Below are positions 3-34,717 of a stretch of 35,696 bases of DNA, one piece after another. The DNA is taken from contig KV454014.1 in assembly GCA_001661245.1 (NCBI GenBank), positions 413,559 to 449,254 on the forward strand, in the 5' to 3' direction. The position numbers were made by a program, and so were the translations under genes. The number at the start of each line of letters is the position of its first letter. Position 1 is the stretch's first letter. A model generated the notes under the pieces. That model made no database searches. It saw only the letters and a program-made list of their open reading frames with translations, and had not been told where the DNA came from. The stretch comes from Pachysolen tannophilus NRRL Y-2460 (Eukaryota).

Positions 3-1643
3 TCTTTATTTGAATATATAAGACCTTCGTTGGATTATCCGACAAGACCAATTATTACCAATGATTCGTGTACTTTAGCAAGAGAGCATAAAGATTTTTT
101 CGCTTTGTACGATAAAAAAGTTAAAGGAAGGCGACCAGTACTACCAGGAAGAGTTGTTATGGTTTATATTAATGGTAGACGGCATACTTGGGTTGCACTA
201 GACTGGGTAATAAAGAAATTTCTTGAAAATGGTGACAGAATTGTTGTGATTGCCTCTGTTAACCCGATACATGGGGAGGGAAGAAGATCATTTAGTCAAA
301 CTCGTAGTAGATCTAGAAAAAGAGGATTAATTGAAACAAAGAAAAATACTACAGAACATATAAAAGATGTTGCATTAAACATTTTAAAATATTGTCTCTT
401 GTTAGCCGATGAAAATTTAATTGTCAAGATAAATGTGGAATTGTCCGTAGGAACAACAAAAGTAACATTAAAAGATATGTTCAAGTTATATCATCCAACT
501 GTAATAGTAACTGGTACTAAAAGAAATATTGATAGAACTCCGATGGTTGCTTGGAATTCAGCTAAAGTCACAGATAGATTAGTTTCAAGATTCCCTATAC
601 CAGTAATAATGGTTCCATCAAATAATATGGAAATTTTTGAATTTTCATTATTTGCTAAATTGAGGGAAAAATTTGCAAATTTTAATTGTGGAAACGAAGA
701 ATCTAAAGAAAATGTAAATGTTAAAGAGATTATTTCAAGAGGTAAAGACTTTGATTTTGAAAAATTAAATAAAACTTCATTTAATAAACTTATGGATGCC
801 ATAAAAGAGGATAATAAACTTTCATCAGTTTTAAATCCTGGTAATGAGATCAAAGTTAGTAAAAGTAGGAATGAAAATGATGTAGATGATGAGAGTGATG
901 AAAGTGATGCATATTCAAGTGAAAATGATTTGGATGATTCAATCTCGGATGCATTTTCAGAATTGTCAAAGACTTTTTCAGAAAGTGATTCCGTTATGGA
1001 ATTGAAAAAAGCTTGTCATAATATAGAAGTGGATTTGGATAAGAAATTGAAAGATCTTAAATCAAGTGAACCTTCAAAAGATTTGTATAAAGATTTATTA
1101 TCAACTGTTTCTCAGGCATCAAGACAAATGGGTATTAGAATGGCCGAAATCGAAAAAAGTGATGGTATGGGTGCTGCAATTGTTAGAATTATCACTGGTT
1201 TACCCGATAGGAAAGCCAAAAAATCAATGTTGGATGTAGCTGATGATCTGCCTCATCCAGGACTATCAAGATTTAAAACAGCAGGACAAGCAGTTTCAGT
1301 AGTACCCTCAATAAACATCTCAGGAGATCCAACTCTCGATGAGGAACATAACAATAGATTACGGCCAACACGTTCTTCTTTGAAATTCCAACTTAGCAGA
1401 ACAGACTCAGAAAGAAGAAAAATGAAGGGTAAAAATGATAATGATCGTCGGCCGTCAGCCGGAATGTTATTCCCAGACAACAGTGACCCAAATCTAGAAT
1501 TCCACAGAAACAAATTGCAAGTAACTTTCTCATCTCCAAATATAGAAAGCACAACTCACAACAGACGTAAAGTTGATCTGGAAAAGGACAAAATAAGATC
1601 CAAATTTTCACTAAGAAGTCTTTTCAAAAAATATTCCAAATAA
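3..1643 (+). CDS. Universal stress protein (USP/AANH-like) domain protein, 5'-partial
   Basis: The frame is open from the window edge (SLFEYIRPSLDYPTRP...), and the track start at 30 is TTG. Fungal USP-like pattern: VALDWVIKKFLENGDRIVVI...VELSVG...LYHPTVIVTGTK...RLVSRFPIPVIMVP, followed by an acidic low-complexity C-terminus. Confidence 0.7.
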   Translation, partial: SLFEYIRPSLDYPTRPIITNDSCTLAREHKDFFALYDKKVKGRRPVLPGRVVMVYINGRRHTWVALDWVIKKFLENGDRIVVIASVNPIHGEGRRSFSQTRSRSRKRGLIETKKNTTEHIKDVALNILKYCLLLADENLIVKINVELSVGTTKVTLKDMFKLYHPTVIVTGTKRNIDRTPMVAWNSAKVTDRLVSRFPIPVIMVPSNNMEIFEFSLFAKLREKFANFNCGNEESKENVNVKEIISRGKDFDFEKLNKTSFNKLMDAIKEDNKLSSVLNPGNEIKVSKSRNENDVDDESDESDAYSSENDLDDSISDAFSELSKTFSESDSVMELKKACHNIEVDLDKKLKDLKSSEPSKDLYKDLLSTVSQASRQMGIRMAEIEKSDGMGAAIVRIITGLPDRKAKKSMLDVADDLPHPGLSRFKTAGQAVSVVPSINISGDPTLDEEHNNRLRPTRSSLKFQLSRTDSERRKMKGKNDNDRRPSAGMLFPDNSDPNLEFHRNKLQVTFSSPNIESTTHNRRKVDLEKDKIRSKFSLRSLFKKYSK

Positions 1644-14412: not shown

Positions 14413-14877
14413 CTTGAACCGAAATATTACTTGTTTATATGAACTTTTCTTTTTTGACTAGCTATTGATCGATATACATAATTCTGCGTATGCATGATAA
14501 TCATTATAGTTTCAGATACATGATTTACAGCTTGTTCTCAAAAGATTCAAATTATAGTCAATAGTGAGTATAGCTTAGATTTTAATTTTAATTTACATCG
14601 GAGATCAAGAATTGATCCATCTCGTGAATAAAAAATGTTAATTTGTAGTAAAAATTCTAGTGCTAAAGAATCCTTGTTAGCTGCATGTTAAAACGGTCTT
14701 TAAAGGCTTACACAAAAATACCAAAAAGTGAATCCAGCAGCCAATTGAAATCTGGAAAACTGCGGTCCAAGACTTTAACTAACACAAGATTGATTATTGA
14801 TTATTGATTACCATACTTTAAAAAAAATAAGAATAAGTAGAAAAAAAAAAAAAAGAAAAAGAGATTCATTTCCCAAA

Positions 14878-15945
14878 TCATAAAGTGACAACAAGTTTTG
14901 TTGTTACTTTTTTACAAGGAGCACCATTTGTAATTCTGCTATCCATCCTTTCCCTTAGAGTTTCAAGAGCAAACTGGAAAGATTCTAAACCTTTTCCAAT
15001 AACCTCTGGTTCAGGAGAAGCAACATATTTTCCTTTTTCCAATACTTCTTCCAAGAATTTAAAGGCATATTTGCCAATATCACTATCAGGAAAAGGACTT
15101 GCAACATAAAATTCACCTGTAACACCTTCAACAGAATCTTCAGGTTCAATAGGACCAACACATGAAAGATAGTGTTTAACACCTTGAGATTTGCTAAGAA
15201 CATGAGCACAAAGTCTTGGAGACCCACGGTTGGTTCCCAAAGCACCAGCTACAGTCTTCCCTTCAAAAGCCTTGATCAAATCTTCAATAACCGTCTCACT
15301 TTTATAGTCAAAAACCTCACTAGCACCTAGTTTCTTGACATAGTCAAAATTCATTGGTGATGCAGTGGTAATGACCTTATATCCAGCAAATATAGCAAGC
15401 TGAATAGCATTACTACCAACACTCGAAGAGCCACCACCAATGAAAACATATTTACCAGTTGGAGCTATAGTTGGAGAAGGGTATTGAAGTCCACAATTCT
15501 TTTCATCAAATAATCCATAAGCTGCAGTAACAAACGGTAATGGAATAACACTGGCGCTTTCATACGAAATAGAACTAGGAATATGAGAAACAAGGTGTTC
15601 TAACACAGGAGAATAATCTTGGAAAGCAGAGCTCGTAGATCCACTACCTAACCCATTACAATAGGCTAACACACGATCACCCTTTTTAAACCTAGTAACA
15701 TCAGTTCCAACTTCAACAACTTCACCTGCAATATCACTTCCTAAAATATGGGGGAACTTAAGCGAAGGAAACAAATCAGTTCCTAATACCGGAATAACAC
15801 AATCCACTAAATTGATGGCCACTGCTGCATTTTTAATGAGGATTTCATTTGGTGCAGGCGACTTATATGGAGATTCGTAAATTTTTAAAGGCAATCCTTT
15901 ACCATCTAACCAAGCAGCTCTATTTACTGGTTTTACTGGTGACAT
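14878..15945 (-). CDS. MDR-superfamily NAD(P)-dependent oxidoreductase (enoyl-reductase-like / CipB-like)
   Basis: NRAAWL...PNEILIKNAAVAINLVD, ILGSDIAGEVVEVG, GGGSSSVGSNAIQLA nucleotide-binding motif and C-terminal KLVVTL. The GHE catalytic-zinc motif is absent. Confidence 0.9.
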   Translation of the reverse strand: MSPVKPVNRAAWLDGKGLPLKIYESPYKSPAPNEILIKNAAVAINLVDCVIPVLGTDLFPSLKFPHILGSDIAGEVVEVGTDVTRFKKGDRVLAYCNGLGSGSTSSAFQDYSPVLEHLVSHIPSSISYESASVIPLPFVTAAYGLFDEKNCGLQYPSPTIAPTGKYVFIGGGSSSVGSNAIQLAIFAGYKVITTASPMNFDYVKKLGASEVFDYKSETVIEDLIKAFEGKTVAGALGTNRGSPRLCAHVLSKSQGVKHYLSCVGPIEPEDSVEGVTGEFYVASPFPDSDIGKYAFKFLEEVLEKGKYVASPEPEVIGKGLESFQFALETLRERMDSRITNGAPCKKVTTKLVVTL

Positions 15946-16016
15946 TATTTTATAATTTATTTTCTTTCTTTTAAAAGCAAAAATTACTTTTAAACCTTTC
16001 TACAATAGAGCAACCA

Positions 16017-16308
16017 TTTAGAATTGATATGGGTTGACATGATTTAAATATGATTTTTAAAACGTATTTAGCGGAGTTAATGATGATTATTAATCAGATA
16101 GAATCATTTAGAAGAATGGTCTTTAGCTCTTGGAATTACTATTATAGAATAAATATCGTTATTTGCTAATTTATTTTATAGTATATAATAAAAGTATTAA
16201 ATCCGATGCAAATATAAATGTTGAAATATTGCAATTGATATTTTTATATAAAAAGTAAATTATCATTTAGGTAAATCCTGATACTATTTTCCATCAGAAG
16301 TTAAGTAA
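16017..16308. repeat. Copy 1 of a diverged direct repeat (promoter of the oxidoreductase gene)
   Basis: Collinear blocks shared with 18107-18476: TTTAGAATTGAT, CGTATTTAGCGGAGTTAA (16063-16080), AAATCCGATRCAAATAYAAA (16199-16218) and AATTATCATTTAGGTAAATCCTGATACT (16258-16285). Confidence 0.92.
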
Positions 16309-16478
16309 AGGTTACTGAAACATTCTAACAGTAACGGTAACTAAACTCAATTTAATGAAGTTCAATTAAAAATCTATAAATAATATATTTCTTGTACCTT
16401 TTATAATGAATGCTATATAATCTTGTTAAGCAATAGTACAAATGATATTTTATTTTTGGTAACTTAATTTCTATCAAT

Positions 16479-18059
16479 TCAATTAACATCGGTCCACCCG
16501 AACGGTGATCTGCTTCTCAAGTAAGCTCCATATTTATAAAAAATAAATGGCATAGGTATTAAAGCAGTTGCACAAAATGCTAATAACGTTGTAGCCCAAT
16601 GAATACCTAATTTTTCATACATTTGTAAAGTGAATAATGGGAATACACCAGCCATCACTGATCTAACTAAACTGTTAGCAGCCATTCCACTAGCAGCAAA
16701 TAGTCTATAAGCATCGACTGTATAAGTAAATATTCCAGTGAAAATTAATACGGTTCCAAAACCATAGAGTACAGAACCTATAAGTGGGCCTATCCAAAAA
16801 CAATTTGGAAATGATGTCCATGCCAAGATGAATAGACCAATTGAAATGAAAACTGAGCCTATCATAACTTGTGGTAACCTAAATTCGGGCTCATGTTTAC
16901 CGTTGTTTCTTTTTACTTGCATTTGGTAAAGTTTCTGAAGAAAAGGTGCTGAAGGTAATAAAAATACTATTCCTACAATTAATCCCATAAAGGATAAACC
17001 TTGACCAATGATTCCAAATCCATAAACTTCACTGAAAATATATGGGAATGAAACGAAAAACATATAAACAATTGCCATTATCAATCCAGAATAAAAACAT
17101 AAAGACAGCATCATTGGATCTCTTGTTAAGAGTAATAAAGGTCTCTTTGATGATAAAATAGTTGATTGAAACAATGTTAAAGGAGTTCTTTCTAAAGGAG
17201 CATACAACATTTCATTACCAGTTTCCTTTCTCAATCTAATTGCCTTTCTCTTTATCAAAACTGGTACATAAGTTTCAGGAACAAGTAAAATAACTGCAAC
17301 TAATACTGCACCAGAGAATATTAACATTACATGGAAAGTCCATTTGAAATATATAGAAGAATTTATAGCTGCTGATATCAATGGGCCTAAAGAAGGTCCC
17401 AAAAATGGCATGATTGAATAAACTACCATAGCTGTACCTATTTGATCTTTATCAAACATATCTGAAATTGTTCCAGATGAAACTGATAAAAAAGCACTTC
17501 CAGAAAATCCTGTCATAAACCTACTAAAAAGTACTCCTCCAATATTATCACAAAAAGATGCAATTAATTGAAAGCATACAACAAAAAATAAACCACCAAC
17601 ATAAGTCAATCTGCGTCCATGATATTCACTTATTGGAGAAAGAAATGTAGGCCCAAAACCAAACCCAAATACATATAACGATATTCCAAGAATTGAAACT
17701 TCATGACCAATGTGGAAATATTCCATGATATGGTCTGTAGCCATTGACCAACAAGATGAGATCATGGTGATACACAAAGCCGATAATGAAATAACCAAAG
17801 TTATTATCCATTTTCGAATAGAAGATAAATTTTTAGGATCTGCAAGATCATTTGGACCATCAAAACTCACTTCATTAGGATCTTTACCTTCAAATACCGC
17901 TAAAGATGGAATTTCTTCCAGAGGATTATAAACAGGTACATTTCCTTGATCATATGTATTCCTTTCTTGTTTTCCTACTTCTCTAGGTTCTTGTATTTGT
18001 AAGTCTGAATCTGAACTGGTTTTCTCAATTTCTTCTCTTAAGTCTATTATTGATGACAT
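16479..18059 (-). CDS. YHK8: MFS drug:H+ antiporter, DHA1 family (Yhk8-like)
   Basis: About 12 TM segments; FDGPNDLADPKNLS..RKW, SPISEYHGRR, VPETYVPVLIKRKAIRLRKETG, PEFRL and YTVDAYRLFAASGMAAN motifs, with C-terminal LRSRSPFGW. The track start at 18068 is TTG; the ATG is at 18059. Confidence 0.85.
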   Translation of the reverse strand: MSSIIDLREEIEKTSSDSDLQIQEPREVGKQERNTYDQGNVPVYNPLEEIPSLAVFEGKDPNEVSFDGPNDLADPKNLSSIRKWIITLVISLSALCITMISSCWSMATDHIMEYFHIGHEVSILGISLYVFGFGFGPTFLSPISEYHGRRLTYVGGLFFVVCFQLIASFCDNIGGVLFSRFMTGFSGSAFLSVSSGTISDMFDKDQIGTAMVVYSIMPFLGPSLGPLISAAINSSIYFKWTFHVMLIFSGAVLVAVILLVPETYVPVLIKRKAIRLRKETGNEMLYAPLERTPLTLFQSTILSSKRPLLLLTRDPMMLSLCFYSGLIMAIVYMFFVSFPYIFSEVYGFGIIGQGLSFMGLIVGIVFLLPSAPFLQKLYQMQVKRNNGKHEPEFRLPQVMIGSVFISIGLFILAWTSFPNCFWIGPLIGSVLYGFGTVLIFTGIFTYTVDAYRLFAASGMAANSLVRSVMAGVFPLFTLQMYEKLGIHWATTLLAFCATALIPMPFIFYKYGAYLRSRSPFGWTDVN

Positions 18060-18106
18060 ATATTTCAAGTGTTCCCCAGCATCTCAAGAAAGAAAAACAG
18101 ATACAG

Positions 18107-18476
18107 TTTAGAATTGATGAGACTTAAATATAATTTCCAATCCGTATTTAGCGGAGTTAACATTAATAATCAAATAGCAGTAGCATTGCATTTCCATTTT
18201 TTATAATAATCAAACTCTTGAAGTGAGTCACAATTATAAATTTTATATATATCGTTAGTTGTTATCCTATAGAATTAGTATTCCGAGGAGAAAAGAAATC
18301 CGATACAAATACAAACTTTTGCAAACGTGGTTTCCAGCAAATGTCGAAATCTTCGTCATTAATATTTAATTTAGAAAAAGGAAAAAAGATATTTATATCT
18401 AATTGAAATTATTTAATTATCATTTAGGTAAATCCTGATACTGTTTTTTATTAAAAGTTTTTTTTTTTTTTAGTAA
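18107..18476. repeat. Copy 2 of the diverged direct repeat (promoter of the MFS gene)
   Basis: The same blocks occur at 18107-18118, 18143-18160, 18296-18315 and 18415-18442, in the same order and orientation as copy 1. Confidence 0.92.
18470..18476. promoter_or_regulatory. Candidate Yap1/Cap1 response element (TTAGTAA = TTACTAA on minus strand)
   Basis: Exact YRE consensus ~410 bp upstream of a DHA1 transporter ATG. It is a short motif in AT-rich DNA, so chance occurrence is possible. Confidence 0.35.
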
Positions 18477-18480
18477 TTAT

Positions 18481-18943
18481 NNNNNNNNNNNNNNNNNNNN
18501 NNNNNNNNNNNNNNNNNNNNNNNNNNNNNNNNNNNNNNNNNNNNNNNNNNNNNNNNNNNNNNNNNNNNNNNNNNNNNNNNNNNNNNNNNNNNNNNNNNNN
18601 NNNNNNNNNNNNNNNNNNNNNNNNNNNNNNNNNNNNNNNNNNNNNNNNNNNNNNNNNNNNNNNNNNNNNNNNNNNNNNNNNNNNNNNNNNNNNNNNNNNN
18701 NNNNNNNNNNNNNNNNNNNNNNNNNNNNNNNNNNNNNNNNNNNNNNNNNNNNNNNNNNNNNNNNNNNNNNNNNNNNNNNNNNNNNNNNNNNNNNNNNNNN
18801 NNNNNNNNNNNNNNNNNNNNNNNNNNNNNNNNNNNNNNNNNNNNNNNNNNNNNNNNNNNNNNNNNNNNNNNNNNNNNNNNNNNNNNNNNNNNNNNNNNNN
18901 NNNNNNNNNNNNNNNNNNNNNNNNNNNNNNNNNNNNNNNNNNN
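18481..18943. other. Assembly gap (463 N)
   Basis: Run of N. Confidence 1.
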
Positions 18944-25686: not shown

Positions 25687-26177
25687 TACTTGTGGGGACA
25701 AATCAAAAAAAAAATCAAAAAAAAAGGGTAATTATTAATTTTCTATTATTAATATTAATGTCCAGAATAATGCGATATATGCTATTGTCTTGTTTTGTTT
25801 TATTTTAATTTTTTTTTTTCCAACTATCTTAATTGATTCATTTAATAATGACTAAGGGAAGAAAAAAACAAATATGCTTATAAACGAATGGAAAACAAAA
25901 CAAAATTGTTCTGGTTTTTTGTTAATAATTTATCAATATCCAACTTGATTATTAACTAACTACAGATATTAAAACCAAGAAAATAAAATTAGAATTTAAA
26001 AAAAAAAAAAAAAAATAAAATTTTTCTTTCTATCAAGATGAAAAGTTGATAAAATGTAAATATTAATTAAATTACCATTGAACCTTTGAACCTTACAAAC
26101 CGGTGAAAATTTTTTGACATTGGTAAAAATAAACAAAAACAACTCTTACCCTTTTAGGAAGAAAGTGGAAACCAAAG

Positions 26178-26183
26178 ACGCGT
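26178..26183. promoter_or_regulatory. MCB-like element ACGCGT upstream of PAL1
   Basis: Exact hexamer ~490 bp upstream of the PAL1 ATG, in CpG-poor DNA. Single copy. Confidence 0.3.
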
Positions 26184-27141
26184 CAAGAATTTTTACGTGT
26201 ATAATAAGCAATCTATAAATATATATATATATATATATGGATTGATAGATATTGGAAAAGAATTCGAAAGTCAAGAGATCAGATCTAATTACAACTTGCA
26301 TTGAAAGAGCCGAAAATTATTAGTCTTTTGGAGAGAAGAACTTTGATTTTCGTTATAAAAAAAAAAAAAAAAAAAAATTTTTTTTTTTTTTTCCCTTCAT
26401 ACTTTATTATTATTTTGAATTTAAACCCTTATTTATTTCCCTTTTTTCGCATAGATGATCTAGAATACTTACTACTTTCTAATCTTAGCTTTAACGGGTA
26501 TGTAACTGTCGACGTGTCAACGAAACAGAAAATGCCGTTCAGGTACAAAAGATACATAAATAATATAAAAGAGAACGCTTTATACAGATGATAACTTGAG
26601 CAACGTAAGCACTACTGAAACTTCTATTCAAGATATATCTCAAGACGTTAGATTTTTAAGCGTTTTCTTACCTTGAACTAAAAAATCTTTTTCCGGGCGG
26701 CTTTTCCTGTTAAATTTTACGGTATTTGAGGTGCCGATTAAATAAATAATAAATCTATTACTTTCTTTTTGTAAAAATATTAAAACTACTTCCGGGAATC
26801 TGAATCTATCTTTTTGATCCGATTTTTCCTTTGTTGCCATCTAGTAGTAACTCGGCTTCTGGACAATTATATAAATATATATAAATAAATATATATATAT
26901 ACATATATGTATATATATATGTATTTGTATAATAATAAGGCAGTTTCACCTGCTATGTTTTATATAACAGGCTATGCTAAGACATTAATTTCTCAAACTA
27001 AATCAAATTGATCAGGTGAAAATTTTTATGATTTAAATCTAATAAATTAGTAAAATTGTACAAGACTTAGTACGGAGAGGAAGGGCATACGCCTAAAGTT
27101 TCTTTCTTTCTCTGAAAAAAAAAAAAAAAAAAAATTTTTTT

Positions 27142-27930
27142 NNNNNNNNNNNNNNNNNNNNNNNNNNNNNNNNNNNNNNNNNNNNNNNNNNNNNNNNNNN
27201 NNNNNNNNNNNNNNNNNNNNNNNNNNNNNNNNNNNNNNNNNNNNNNNNNNNNNNNNNNNNNNNNNNNNNNNNNNNNNNNNNNNNNNNNNNNNNNNNNNNN
27301 NNNNNNNNNNNNNNNNNNNNNNNNNNNNNNNNNNNNNNNNNNNNNNNNNNNNNNNNNNNNNNNNNNNNNNNNNNNNNNNNNNNNNNNNNNNNNNNNNNNN
27401 NNNNNNNNNNNNNNNNNNNNNNNNNNNNNNNNNNNNNNNNNNNNNNNNNNNNNNNNNNNNNNNNNNNNNNNNNNNNNNNNNNNNNNNNNNNNNNNNNNNN
27501 NNNNNNNNNNNNNNNNNNNNNNNNNNNNNNNNNNNNNNNNNNNNNNNNNNNNNNNNNNNNNNNNNNNNNNNNNNNNNNNNNNNNNNNNNNNNNNNNNNNN
27601 NNNNNNNNNNNNNNNNNNNNNNNNNNNNNNNNNNNNNNNNNNNNNNNNNNNNNNNNNNNNNNNNNNNNNNNNNNNNNNNNNNNNNNNNNNNNNNNNNNNN
27701 NNNNNNNNNNNNNNNNNNNNNNNNNNNNNNNNNNNNNNNNNNNNNNNNNNNNNNNNNNNNNNNNNNNNNNNNNNNNNNNNNNNNNNNNNNNNNNNNNNNN
27801 NNNNNNNNNNNNNNNNNNNNNNNNNNNNNNNNNNNNNNNNNNNNNNNNNNNNNNNNNNNNNNNNNNNNNNNNNNNNNNNNNNNNNNNNNNNNNNNNNNNN
27901 NNNNNNNNNNNNNNNNNNNNNNNNNNNNNN
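27142..27930. other. Assembly gap (789 N)
   Basis: Run of N flanked by poly(A)/poly(T) tracts. Confidence 1.
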
Positions 27931-29491
27931 NAAAAAAAAAAAAAAAATTTAGGAATGAAATAAAGATTTTTTTTTCCATATTACTATTTCATGATACAAC
28001 TACAGCAGCTCTATATTTAAAAAAATTATTTTGCTTATATCTCTCAGCCAAGTATTAAAGCCATAGGCTTTTTCAATTGAACTCAATTCAATTCAATTCA
28101 ACTCGCAATTCCTTCCTATTCATCATTATATAATAATATATTGTAAAGACGGAAAATGGAATTTGGAAAAGTAATATAAATACGCCCCTGATGCATGTGA
28201 CGTATTCCAAACTGTATGATACTTTGCATTAGTGTTTTATGCATTACTGTAAACTTCAGTCGTCATGTCAATCGTCATCTGCGCTCTTAAAAAGTATTCA
28301 ATTCAGTTTGGAGTTGAATCATTCAAGAGACATATTTTAGTTTGGGTTGTGTTGTGTTGTGTACACAATTCGTCCAAAAAAAAAAAAAAATTTTTTTTTT
28401 TTTTAGTCGGAAATTGAAGCTTCTTTTCCTAAATGAATAATATTTCCATGAATTCTTTTGATATAATAATAATTTCTTTTTCTTTTATCCTACTCCCACT
28501 CAATCTCCATTCAAGAAATTTAAAAAATTATTGTCGAATTTAGAGTTTTTCTTTATTGATGTCTTATTCAGCAGATATTTGAATAAAGTTCTATTAAACT
28601 CAATTTCGACTTGGCCAAAAAAAAAAAAAATTAAGGCATGAGATATAATTTAAATATTAATGAATGCATGTAAGACATATTTCTCGGGCAGAAGATAACT
28701 TTCTACCAAGAAAAAATAAATAAAAAAAAAAAACAGTCTTTGGATACTATGGATATTAAGTATAAAATTACATTATGAGAAAAAAAATTTTTTTATTTTC
28801 TTTAAAAAATCCAAGAACTCCCGCTGAATTGTTGGAAATGAGAATTCGTTCTATATTTTTAATGAAAAAACTTAGTGCAATAATAATAATAATAATGATA
28901 ATAAAAGGAAAATTGGAGTAGACATTGAACTGAAGAATAATTTGATTGATCTTACATAATGTTTTTTCACATTTCTACTTTTATTTGTGAATCATTATCA
29001 AAACTTTTTTGATACACTTAAACGAGATCTCGTTTATGGACCAAAGACGTAGATTCTTTTTGTATTTACTTTTATATGCAAAAACTCTTATTAAAATTGG
29101 TATGAATAACAAAGCAAGCAGGTCAAAATTCTGGAATGTATTAACCAAGAATTCCTTGCAGAACTCAATTTTATGCATCCTGCATGTATTAGTATGCATG
29201 ATAATAGGGCTGCTCCAGACTATGCAAGATTGCTAAAAACTTTGCATTGTGCTCTCAATGAAAGACGCACGCTTAAATATTTGAATCTATGCAATAAGTC
29301 CGAACCCAAAAAAAAATAAAGTAAAATAAAAATAATGAAAAACTATTTAAATCAGTAAAACTAATTGCGAAGAGCAATAATATATTTGCAACTAACGAGT
29401 CACGGCTTTGTTTCGTTTCCCATTGCCACTACTGTTTCTCGAAACAAAATCAGTGATTTCAATCTAAAAGAGTTTATAATAAGGGAAGAAG

Positions 29492-29525
<34 letters not shown>

Positions 29526-31544
29526 AAATTTCTGGATGTAACCGTTTCAATGTAAAATAACTTGGATTCTATGGAAACCTTTTATATATATTATCTAAAA
29601 ACGTAAAAAAATTAATCATTTGATTATATAGCATTGGGATGAAAAATAATTTCAATTTTCTTTTTTTTTAATGTTAAAAGTGTTATTTAAGGCAAAAAAA
29701 AAGAAATAGAAATTGCTACCAATCAAGACCTAAATCACTAAAATAAGGCCGATTACATTCACAAATTTTTCGGGAATTCATTTTTATACGAACCGCAAAA
29801 ACAATTTGGGTCATTTAATACATTTATTTGCATTTGTTTTATTTTGCTTCTTCTTCTTTTTCCTTTTCCTCTTCTTCTTATTCTTCTTCTTTTCTTGTTT
29901 TGTAATCTTTGCTTTTGATGATCACGGGTTGCTTTCAATTAGTCTAACATTGAATTAATTTAAACCCAAAATTCCGCTTTAAGACTTTTTTGATACAGAT
30001 AAATCTTTATAAGATTGCGCAGAATCGTGGAAGGCATTGATTAAGAAAATAAATGAAAAATATTGACAAAATACGAGAAAAAACAAAGAAAAACAAAAAA
30101 TTAAAATAAAAAAAGAGATGGATGATGTTCGAAAAGCAACAATTAACTTTTTTGCACTATTTAGTAAAAATATTGTCTCACTAAAATTTTCCAAATAATC
30201 AACTTTTTTCTTTTTCTTTTTTTTTTTTTTTTCTTTTAAAAATAAGATAAAACTACTCAGAATAAATGCCTTTCGAGATACGGTAGACAGATTGATCACT
30301 GTAAGCTTTTTTAAACTTTCTCTTGCTTAGATTATGTTATCATTTTAAACAGTGAAAACAGTAGGATTTCCGCCATAATTATCATCATTTATGGTCGTGT
30401 TTCACTGGAAACAATTGGTAATTTTCTCTCGGATATTGAGGGAAAGACAAAAAGTTAAAAAAAATTTCAAAGCAAAAATTGAACATCTTGGATCAGCAGT
30501 ATATCTATGTATAGATGAATAAAGAGGTTCAGTGATTGACCAATTATGCTCATGTTCACAAAAAGAACTTATAAAATGACCTACTATTTAGTGGCATATC
30601 TCACCAAATTCAATTTGGCATTAAGCGTAGCTCGTAATTCCGAATTCTTTTACTTGCTTACTTATTTTTTTAGATCATAACCCTACTATATTAAAATTCG
30701 AGTCAATTTCTAAAAAAGAATCAAATTTAGATACACTTAACATATATTGCATAATTCTTTGATTAAGAAAATAGCTTTTCTAAACATTTAAAACAACATA
30801 CGTCCTTCATCTTCTTTCTCTTTTACCTCCTGCAAATTTTTGAATAACAACTGCTAACAAAAAAAAAAGAAAAAGAAAAAAAAAAAAAGAATGGTGTTAA
30901 ATACCAAGTTTATTTCATCGGGTATGTTCAGAACAAATGTCCTCTATTTATTTGGTCGAGCCAAAAAAAAAAATAAAAAAAAGAAAACATTATTTCCCAA
31001 AAATACTTTTAGATGCGGTATGTAGTAAAAGAGGTTTACTAAATCTTACATGTTATTACATTATGCATATGCACAATTTGTTATCGCTCAAAAATTTTTC
31101 AATTAATTTTTCATTTATTTTAAGAGGAAGATTTTCTAAACTTAGCATTTAACTCATAAACTTTCCTGTTGATCCAATTTTCGGGCAGTTTTCTTTTTCT
31201 TATTTTTTTTCCTTTTCTCTCTTTTTTTGCTTCTGTTTCTTGTGTTTTTTTTTTTTTTTTTTTCATTGAAATATCAGTCCAAACGATCTGTCTCAAAAAA
31301 AAAAAAAAAAAAAAATAGTTGACATTAATAATAAGTACATATCCATTTAATCTTTTTAGACTATTCTGTATGGCACCAAGATTCTTTGAAAAAGATAGGA
31401 ATATATGAATAAACCTCTTCCCATTATTATTAAAAATTCCTCTTTATTCGTTATTTTCTTTTTTTTTCTTTTTCTTTTTTTTTCTTCAAATTATTTCTGT
31501 TTCAGCAAACAACATCAACACATTTTCCAATTCAATAATCAGCA

Positions 31545-33049
31545 ATGAACAATACTGCAAACAGAAACCCATTTGGCATTCGGTAAGTTCTCACTCTTTT
31601 TTTTTTTCATTTTGGCTCGAAACTATTGTCACTCCACGGGAACAATTATCTAACTAACATATAACTAGGTTGCCTTCAATTTCATCATTAACTCATGAAT
31701 CTAATATTAATATTCCAGAAGCAAATTCTTCTTTGCTTAGAAAATTTGATTCACTGAGCGAAAGAAGTTCCAAGAAAGTTGAGGATTCTTCTTATGTTAC
31801 TTGTGCAACTTCTTTAGTGGAATTGGCTCGATCGAATAATGGAGATGGGTTTAGGAAAAATTCCATTATTAAGAGAGAAGAAGATTCGGTTTCCAAGAGT
31901 CCAAGAGAAATCAAGTTTCATTCTTCTTCAACAGATTTAAAAGGAGTATATCATCATAACGAATCTACAGATCAAAGTGTTTCTTCTAATTCTACTCCAG
32001 GGATTCCTCCACTTTCATCCAAATTAACTTCATTTTCATCTTATTCATCACCAAATAATAGCAGCAGTAATAGTAGTGCTAGTGCTAGTGCTAATGCTAG
32101 TCATAATACAGAAATGGGTTATAATGAAAAGTTGTCTAATTCGGTACAAGCACCAAGATCGTTAGTAGCGGCTCCTCCTCCTCCACCACCTCCATCAACA
32201 CTGGTACAATCACCTTATATGATTTCTTATTCGAATAATGCTGCTCCAGCTGCTCCAACTCCAATGTCAACACAAGGGTATTTCCAACCGGTTAATCACC
32301 ACCACCCTCTTTACCCTGGTCAAATTCCTTCCTATCAAATTCCAGCGTCACAATTAAATGATTCTACAATTCCAAAGAGGTCTCAAGTATCAAGACAAAA
32401 TTTACAATGTCAAAGGTGTGGTACTGCAGAGACTCCTGAATGGAGAAGAGGTCCAAATGGTTCAAGAACTTTATGTAATGCTTGTGGGTTATATCATGCT
32501 AAATTGGTCAAGAGAAAAGGTCCAATAGCAGCAGCAGAAGAAATTAAATTTAAAAAGATAAAACCTACAAGAAATTCCAGAAAGAAAAATACAATTAGAA
32601 GAAGTATTGCTATTGGTAATTATCATTATGATCTTATACCACCACTGATCCATGGACCTCAACAACAACCACCAATAGCACCACCACCTCAACATTACCA
32701 TCAAAACGTTAACACTAACGCTAACGCATACCCGCCTCAACCTATATATAACAATGGTACTTCATATTATCAACCGTTACCACATATTCAACTAGCTCAA
32801 CATCAACATCAACCGCAACATCAACATCAACCACAACTTCAACATCATCAACTTCATCATCAATTTCAACATCAACACCAACATCAACATCAACATCCAG
32901 TGACATCGCCATCTAATATATCTCCGCCATCTGTAATGGTACAATTTCAAGTCTCACCAGTTCATTCTTCACTGGTTCAAGGCTTTTCCCAATCCCAACC
33001 ATACACAGTGGGATTTTCTAGACAAAACTTACCACAAACAAGTCCTTGA
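31545..33049 (+). CDS. BRG1: GATA zinc-finger transcription factor, Brg1/Gat2-like; exons 31545-31582 and 31669-33049 (472 aa)
   Basis: C-X2-C-X18-C-X2-C finger CQRCGTAETPEWRRGPNGSRTLCNACGLYHAKLVKRKG..AAEE resembles Candida Brg1. Splicing gives MNNTANRNPFGIRLPSISSL (LPSI motif). The track start at 31670 is TTG. Confidence 0.85.
31583..31668 (+). other. Spliceosomal intron in the GATA factor gene (86 nt)
   Basis: GTAAGT donor, TAACTAAC at 31651-31658 and TAG acceptor. The phase-2 join is in frame. Confidence 0.9.
32798..32897 (+). repeat. Coding (CAACAT)n-type repeat encoding a His/Gln tract
   Basis: QHQHQPQHQHQPQLQHHQLHHQFQHQHQHQHQH in the GATA factor C-terminus. Confidence 0.9.
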
Positions 33050-34645: not shown

Positions 34646-34717
34646 GCCATCCTAGTATAGTGGTAAGTACACCTCGTTGTGGCCGAGGAAACCCAGGTTC
34701 GATTCCCGGGGATGGCA
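34646..34717 (+). tRNA. tRNA-His (GUG), intronless
   Basis: Acceptor stem GCCATCC/GGATGGC, A box TAGTATAGTGG, anticodon arm CCTCG-TTGTGGC-CGAGG (GTG at 34679-34681) and B box GGTTCGATTCC. G-1 is not encoded. Confidence 0.97.

Follow-up and report, generated by a model that had tools for sequence, protein, structure and literature searches.

Promoter duplication or capture is a recognised route to regulatory rewiring, documented mainly in bacteria and in the transposon-derived promoters of animals and plants. Solo long terminal repeats (LTRs) and Ty elements can donate promoters to adjacent yeast genes, and in Saccharomyces cerevisiae the reductase and efflux pair ARR2-ARR3 is placed under common control by one divergent promoter. 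Usakin et al. are said to have described, in 2005, an alien promoter capture in testis-expressed repeats of Drosophila, with the promoter copied from an unrelated gene. To our knowledge, clear budding-yeast cases of a whole native promoter copied before a non-homologous neighbour have rarely been described. Here we analysed a 35,696-base stretch of Pachysolen tannophilus NRRL Y-2460 (contig KV454014.1, positions 413,559 to 449,254; the window hereafter, AT-rich in base composition and with 34,443 non-N bases), in which a reductase gene and a YHK8-type exporter gene, adjacent and non-homologous, each lie behind a copy (copy A and copy B, respectively) of the same upstream region.

This arrangement departs from each of the systems above. 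The Drosophila capture concerns tandem repeat families, whereas the Pachysolen case is one pair of neighbouring single-copy genes. Unlike ARR2 and ARR3, with their single divergent promoter, the two Pachysolen genes have two tandem copies; and unlike expression driven by solo LTRs or Ty elements, the locus yielded no LTR features and no extra copies.

Promoter reuse has been surveyed at large scale in prokaryotes, where putative mobile promoters were recognised as similar upstream sequence before non-paralogous genes (Nijveen, Matus-Garcia and van Passel 2012, PMC3575422); a eukaryotic extension was proposed, not done, by its authors. The Pachysolen pair resembles those cases in having similar upstream sequence (z ~13) before non-paralogous genes with differing Pfam domains. 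However, that survey set a minimum of 80% identity and of 50 nt in length for the interval from -150 to -50 of the start codon, and the best ungapped 50-nt window of the Pachysolen copies in this interval has 39/50 identities (78%). The best such window anywhere has 42/50 (84%), at 16254/18411, which is about -310 to -400. The Pachysolen case also differs from the prokaryotic ones in that the host is a budding yeast, the unit is 300-370 bp long and more diverged, and the genes are immediate neighbours.

The likeness to yeast drug and stress regulons is functional. YHK8 is one of 12 DHA1 genes of S. cerevisiae, and DHA1 genes are under the control of Pdr1, Yrr1, Stb5 and Yap1, according to PMC4021133. 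In PMC8518171, YHK8 and FLR1 rise strongly together with furaldehyde-detoxifying enzymes as S. cerevisiae adapts to lignocellulose hydrolysate, and the deletion strains, yhk8 among them, show poor growth in it. Like the regulons of Yap1, Pdr1/Pdr3, Yrr1 and Stb5, as far as those two sources describe them, the Pachysolen locus joins a DHA1 exporter with an oxidoreductase and has AP-1-like and CGG-type candidate sites. Unlike them, in that those regulons are described there as sharing short motifs only among non-homologous promoters, the putative Pachysolen promoter is one whole paralogous unit. Our search of the literature returned no homologous or duplicated promoter before non-homologous yeast genes, which is weak evidence of absence. 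We regard the proposed promoter duplication as an event of a recognised type, new in that it is observed in a budding yeast.

The locus consists of two minus-strand genes in tandem, with the following features.

14878-15945, minus strand: reductase gene, 355 amino acids (aa), MDR superfamily, quinone/enoyl-reductase-like, Pfam ADH_N and ADH_zinc_N
16004-16302, minus strand: copy A of the putative control region, -59 to -357 from the reductase ATG, delimited by alignment to copy B
16303-16478, minus strand: 3' flank of the exporter gene, outside the repeat; similarity to the exporter paralogue extends from the stop codon to 16409
16479-18059, minus strand: exporter gene, 526 aa, YHK8-type DHA1 major-facilitator transporter, Pfam MFS_1
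18094-18459, minus strand: copy B of the putative control region, -35 to -400 from the exporter ATG, delimited by alignment to copy A
18481-18943, no strand: run of 463 N beyond copy B, probably a spurious scaffold gap, judged by flanking letters and contig ends

We found that copies A and B are direct and collinear repeats, with the same orientation relative to the two minus-strand genes. Gapped local alignment of 16004-16302 with 18094-18459 gave 224 matched and 55 mismatched positions, with 15 gap events that span 107 columns; its score of 171 compares with a mean of 63.8 (standard deviation 8.3, maximum 94) for 200 dinucleotide-preserving shuffles. MAFFT returned the same collinear picture. 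The copies start 35-59 nt and end 357-400 nt upstream of the start codons, and both contain TATA-like heptamers on the gene strand (-235 before the reductase, -146 and -188 before the exporter). By local alignment and blastn, the segment 16303-16478 matched neither copy B nor any other part of the window significantly.

These results agree, at essentially the same coordinates, with the first-pass annotation, which had described the DNA upstream of an oxidoreductase and a DHA1 transporter as homologous and collinear. The coding sequences are unrelated, as it had also stated (ADH_N and ADH_zinc_N vs MFS_1), and Pfam, homologue and PDB matches support the identities of the two proteins, a YHK8-type DHA1 exporter and an MDR-superfamily reductase. 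Its further claim of a shared promoter stands in part: the two 5' flanks are paralogues and are placed where promoters lie, and co-regulation is what we infer from the sequence.

The arrangement is not an assembly artefact, since contigs from two independent studies span both junctions with 0 differences. One contig (14870-16617) runs unbroken through the reductase, copy A and the 3' end of the transporter gene, and another (17627-18471) covers copy B, in both read sets.

The similarity between the copies is concentrated in five islands.

16017-16028 in copy A and 18107-18118 in copy B, minus strand: island 1, an exact 12-mer, at -72 to -83 and -48 to -59 from the respective ATGs
16063-16080 in copy A and 18143-18160 in copy B, minus strand: island 2, an exact 18-mer with a CGG triplet
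16153-16161 in copy A and 18249-18257 in copy B, minus strand: island 3, the exact 9-mer ATATCGTTA
16199-16218 in copy A and 18296-18315 in copy B, minus strand: island 4, an 18/20 block with a CCG triplet
16258-16285 in copy A and 18415-18442 in copy B, minus strand: island 5, an exact 28-mer holding TTAGGTAA

Of the exact 12-, 18- and 28-mers, the window holds two occurrences apiece and none of their reverse complements, and ATATCGTTA has one reverse-complement copy, inside the transporter coding sequence at 17676. Exact runs of at least 8 nt follow one order and lie at similar distances from the ATG in both copies.

Run of 11 nt: -72 from the reductase ATG, -48 from the exporter ATG
Run of 8 nt: -99 from the reductase ATG, -65 from the exporter ATG
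Run of 18 nt: -118 from the reductase ATG, -84 from the exporter ATG
Run of 9 nt: -208 from the reductase ATG, -190 from the exporter ATG
Run of 9 nt: -254 from the reductase ATG, -237 from the exporter ATG
Run of 28 nt: -313 from the reductase ATG, -356 from the exporter ATG

Aligned columns outside these six runs are ~72% identical. When the 294 alignment events were permuted 20,000 times, a longest run of at least 28 had p = 0.022, and jointly with a second run of at least 18 it had p = 0.004; permuting columns, with gaps counted by length, gave p below 1e-4. Four of the islands (the 12-mer at 16017/18107, the 18-mer at 16063/18143, the 18/20 block at 16199/18296 and the 28-mer at 16258/18415) had been listed in the first-pass annotation as conserved blocks within diverged spacers, and all four are present. 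The clustering of matches exceeds that of uniform decay, as this description implies, though modestly (p 0.02 to 0.004).

Three of the islands hold candidate factor sites. In PMC3111461, the Cgap1p consensus is given as MTTASSTAA, the 8-bp Yap element with adjacent half-sites as TTACGTAA and the 7-bp element as TTA(C/G)TAA. At the centre of the 28-mer stands TTAGGTAA; it agrees with the TTASSTAA core of the Cgap1p consensus and resembles TTACGTAA. This core has 5 sites in the non-N bases of the window, and 2/5 are the 28-mer islands. The 18-mer holds GCGGA, and together with the preceding bases this makes CCG-N7-CGG in copy B and ACG-N7-CGG in copy A; the 20-mer holds a CCG. CGG triplets are characteristic of fungal zinc-cluster factors. 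According to a preprint (bioRxiv 10.1101/2023.08.11.553033), one CGG half site suffices for binding by Pdr1p and Pdr3p in vitro, although on its own it activates weakly. No Yrr1 site consensus was found in the available part of PMC10007725, and we make no Yrr1 assignment. The AP-1-like 8-mer and the CGG half-sites may serve as leads, not as identifications.

Our preferred reading, which we hold with somewhat better than even confidence, is that a native promoter was duplicated and that its retained islands give both genes the same inputs, probably in a chemical or oxidative stress response. A whole intergenic control region of 0.3-0.4 kb would have been duplicated locally in the Pachysolen lineage, so that the exporter and the reductase, adjacent, co-oriented and non-homologous, each ended up behind a paralogous copy. 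The copies would be the working promoters of the two genes, and the islands would be retained transcription-factor sites, the candidates being an AP-1-like (Yap/Cap1-type) 8-mer for the 28-mer and, for the 18-mer and the 20-mer, CGG half-sites of the zinc-cluster type. Through these shared promoter copies and their retained islands, both genes would react to one common signal, for which chemical or oxidative stress is the most plausible choice, by analogy with the response of S. cerevisiae YHK8, alongside FLR1 and aldehyde reductases, to lignocellulose hydrolysate. Hence, the exporter and the reductase are probably switched on together.

Several observations weigh against this reading. The island statistic is modest, and its outcome varies with the treatment of gaps. 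Matches to the motifs are short and of a generic kind: at TTAGGTAA, the 9-mer Cgap1p consensus goes unmatched at its 5' A/C, and the canonical 7-bp Yap element is absent from copy A, the sole one in the exporter 5' flank (18470) lying just outside copy B, beside a T-run. Both copies contain upstream ATGs, at -72, -95 and -162 before the reductase and at -23, -104 and further positions before the exporter, so the transcript start cannot be placed from the sequence. Each copy fills nearly the whole intergenic spacer, with the distal end of copy A 176 nt from the exporter stop and that of copy B ~95 nt from the helicase stop (if the gap between them is spurious). Hence, part of each copy may carry terminator or other 3'-end signals of the upstream gene besides the downstream promoter. 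Furthermore, copies as diverged from each other as A is from B (<80%) fall below the threshold of the contig matching described below, so there may be a wider, old family.

Another explanation would be decayed mobile-element sequence, the copies being either a pair of ancient solo LTRs or the two LTRs of one element, with a captured exporter retrocopy between them and a downstream LTR that reads out into the reductase. The copies do flank the exporter as direct repeats, and similarity between the exporter and its paralogue is limited as in an mRNA-derived copy (11 nt on the 5' side, ~70-95 nt on the 3' side). However, blastn with both copies (word size 7) revealed no third copy in the window, and only the partner and A/T-rich low-complexity stretches were matched. 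Logan contigs of two sequencing runs of the same organism from two studies (X1 and X5), placed on 14700-18480 at 80% likeness, gave a flat depth of one contig over copy A in both runs, and the extra matches over copy B were poly-A/T stretches only (e.g. 18375-18398 and 18442-18472). Elsewhere, these contigs yielded neither a near-identical copy nor an intact island at this likeness, and matches as short as 21-34 nt were detected elsewhere on the stretch. Contig breaks fall within the transporter coding region only, which has long identical words in common with the paralogue, and neither copy contains one; two runs of other organisms from the same study (X6 and X7) had low-complexity matches only. 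Hence, as far as the window and these contigs show, the region is not a young dispersed repeat, a case of which the first-pass annotation had warned. Reading the sequence for LTR marks revealed no shared TG...CA termini and no flanking target-site duplications or direct repeats, although decay could hide such marks. Nor was there a polypurine tract next to copy A, where 16303-16340 is not rich in purines, or a sequence resembling a primer-binding site next to copy B. Rfam and tRNA scans found nothing in or near the repeat, and the sole tRNA gene of the window, tRNA-His at 34646, is 16 kb off. Two independent insertions in the same orientation, 35 and 59 nt before adjacent start codons, would moreover be a coincidence, and we consider a mobile origin very unlikely. 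A miniature inverted-repeat transposable element was ruled out, since no terminal inverted repeat is common to both copies.

A spacer doubled by a local or segmental duplication and simply decaying, with islands that are chance runs or short patches of gene conversion and with genes that are regulated independently, is a more serious rival, though still a clearly less likely one than promoter duplication with retained sites. It is favoured by the ~72% identity outside the runs, which means that divergence is unsaturated, by the longest-run test, which reaches only p = 0.022, and by the ease with which AT-rich sequence is aligned. However, the 28- and 18-nt runs taken jointly have p = 0.004, both copies have kept their position and orientation directly before intact genes, and island order and spacing persist despite 107 indel columns between the islands. 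It is quite improbable, in our view, that the conserved part is instead a terminator, 3'-end or insulator element serving the helicase and the exporter rather than a promoter of the downstream gene. With the minus strand carrying all three genes, either copy lies downstream of a gene too, and the 28-mer follows the exporter stop by 194 nt and the helicase stop by ~110 nt if the N run is spurious; against this, homology continues for ~300 nt past the 28-mer, to within 35-59 nt of the downstream ATGs, and the proximal islands hold their distance to these ATGs and not to the upstream stops. A small conserved open reading frame within the repeat was also rejected, as the frame that starts at the ATG of the 28-mer has ~32 codons in copy A and 4 in copy B.

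The exporter matches Pfam MFS_1 (2e-37), and its named homologues are Yhk8p and drug:proton antiporters of budding yeasts, at 44-58% identity. With its MFS_1 fold and with Yhk8p as the closest named relatives, its sequence places it in the YHK8 subfamily of DHA1 drug:proton antiporters. A paralogue of 526 aa (P0122, PACTADRAFT_75565) on another scaffold of the same strain is 84% identical at the amino acid level, without gaps. The next-best homologue (P0123) is only 63% identical to the window exporter and 64% to the paralogue; hence, by protein identity, the duplication that produced the exporter and its paralogue is specific to this lineage. In the contigs, nucleotide similarity between exporter and paralogue covers 16409-18070 only, from 11 nt 5' of the ATG to ~70-95 nt 3' of the stop, and the next 30 letters on each side, which were those compared, differ between the paralogue contig and the window. 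Since this similarity ends 11 nt before the ATG, the sequences indicate that, at one locus or the other, the promoter has had a different history from the exporter coding sequence. An A14 run lies ~13 nt past the 3' end of the similarity; such runs are very common in the genome, and this one was rejected as evidence that the paralogue arose as a retrocopy.

These limits leave room for a one-step origin, which we consider unlikely. A replicative template switch would have brought a promoterless YHK8 coding copy (from about -11 to +70..95) in between helicase and reductase, and the switch would have recopied the whole resident intergenic promoter as a target duplication of 300-370 bp. The newly arrived exporter and the resident reductase would then have come under one control instantly. 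If true, this would be a mobile-element-free route by which yeasts could acquire co-regulated two-gene detoxification modules.

Some further features of the exporter were noted. Its first 60 residues are far more diverged from the paralogue than the remainder. It has two CTG codons, and codon 318 (17106-17108) falls at an alignment column that is mostly Leu, Met or Phe (the five commonest residues over 58 homologues are 19 L, 16 M, 8 A, 8 F and 2 I); under the CUG-Ala code, the window exporter has Ala at this codon and the paralogue has Leu. In each of the runs X1 and X5, one contig joins 16643 to 17212, with 568 nt skipped and just 24 letters on the shorter side, which is probably a match from another member of the transporter family rather than a deletion allele.

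The reductase matches Pfam ADH_N (2.8e-15) and ADH_zinc_N (1.6e-08), both above the Pfam cut-offs, and its nearest PDB relatives, a plant chloroplast quinone-oxidoreductase homologue (5a3j) and the LovC enoyl reductase (3gqv), belong to the quinone oxidoreductases and trans-acting enoyl reductases. Its GroES-like ADH_N and Rossmann ADH_zinc_N domains make it, by sequence, a quinone/enoyl reductase of the MDR superfamily. In a search of 5.8 billion proteins, the best non-self homologue among the matches listed is 52% identical. An organism name is carried by 16 of the 119 non-self matches listed, namely 13 filamentous ascomycetes, 1 Mucoromycota fungus and 2 Ktedonobacteria-type bacteria, and budding yeasts account for 0/16 of these named homologues. 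The reductase has a branch length of 1.22 in a tree of 120 sequences, with its placement unresolved, and its codon usage is fully native, with 0 CTG codons and a third-position GC content of 0.206 vs 0.200 for the exporter. Recent horizontal transfer was considered and found unsupported, given the native codon usage; the tree adds only the long branch. The gene may be an old acquisition or a relict.

Past copy B and the run of 463 N comes a DEAD-box helicase gene, likewise on the minus strand, with its 3' end nearest to the run. This N run has the same T-run plus AGTAATTA on both flanks, and contigs of the read sets also end in this T-run; a second N run, at 27142-27931, has the same A-run plus TTT on both flanks. 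Since identical homopolymers with a few further bases stand on both sides, both N runs look like spurious scaffold gaps at homopolymers between overlapping contig ends, and not like missing sequence. Farther along, 25700-32100 (~6.4 kb) has no open reading frame of at least 100 aa save an artefact across the N run, and long runs of poly-A, poly-T and (TA)n are densely packed in it.

Among the publications listed by a search on the Pachysolen transcriptome, nothing on these two genes was seen. If the exporter and the reductase are not co-induced, the locus would be merely a decaying local duplication. If they are, the five islands, kept through long divergence, would be a natural paralogous footprint that points directly to possible regulatory sites in a yeast whose promoters have hardly been studied, and the pair would be a candidate exporter-plus-reductase tolerance module in P. 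tannophilus, a species first isolated from tanning liquors and studied for growth on lignocellulose sugars.

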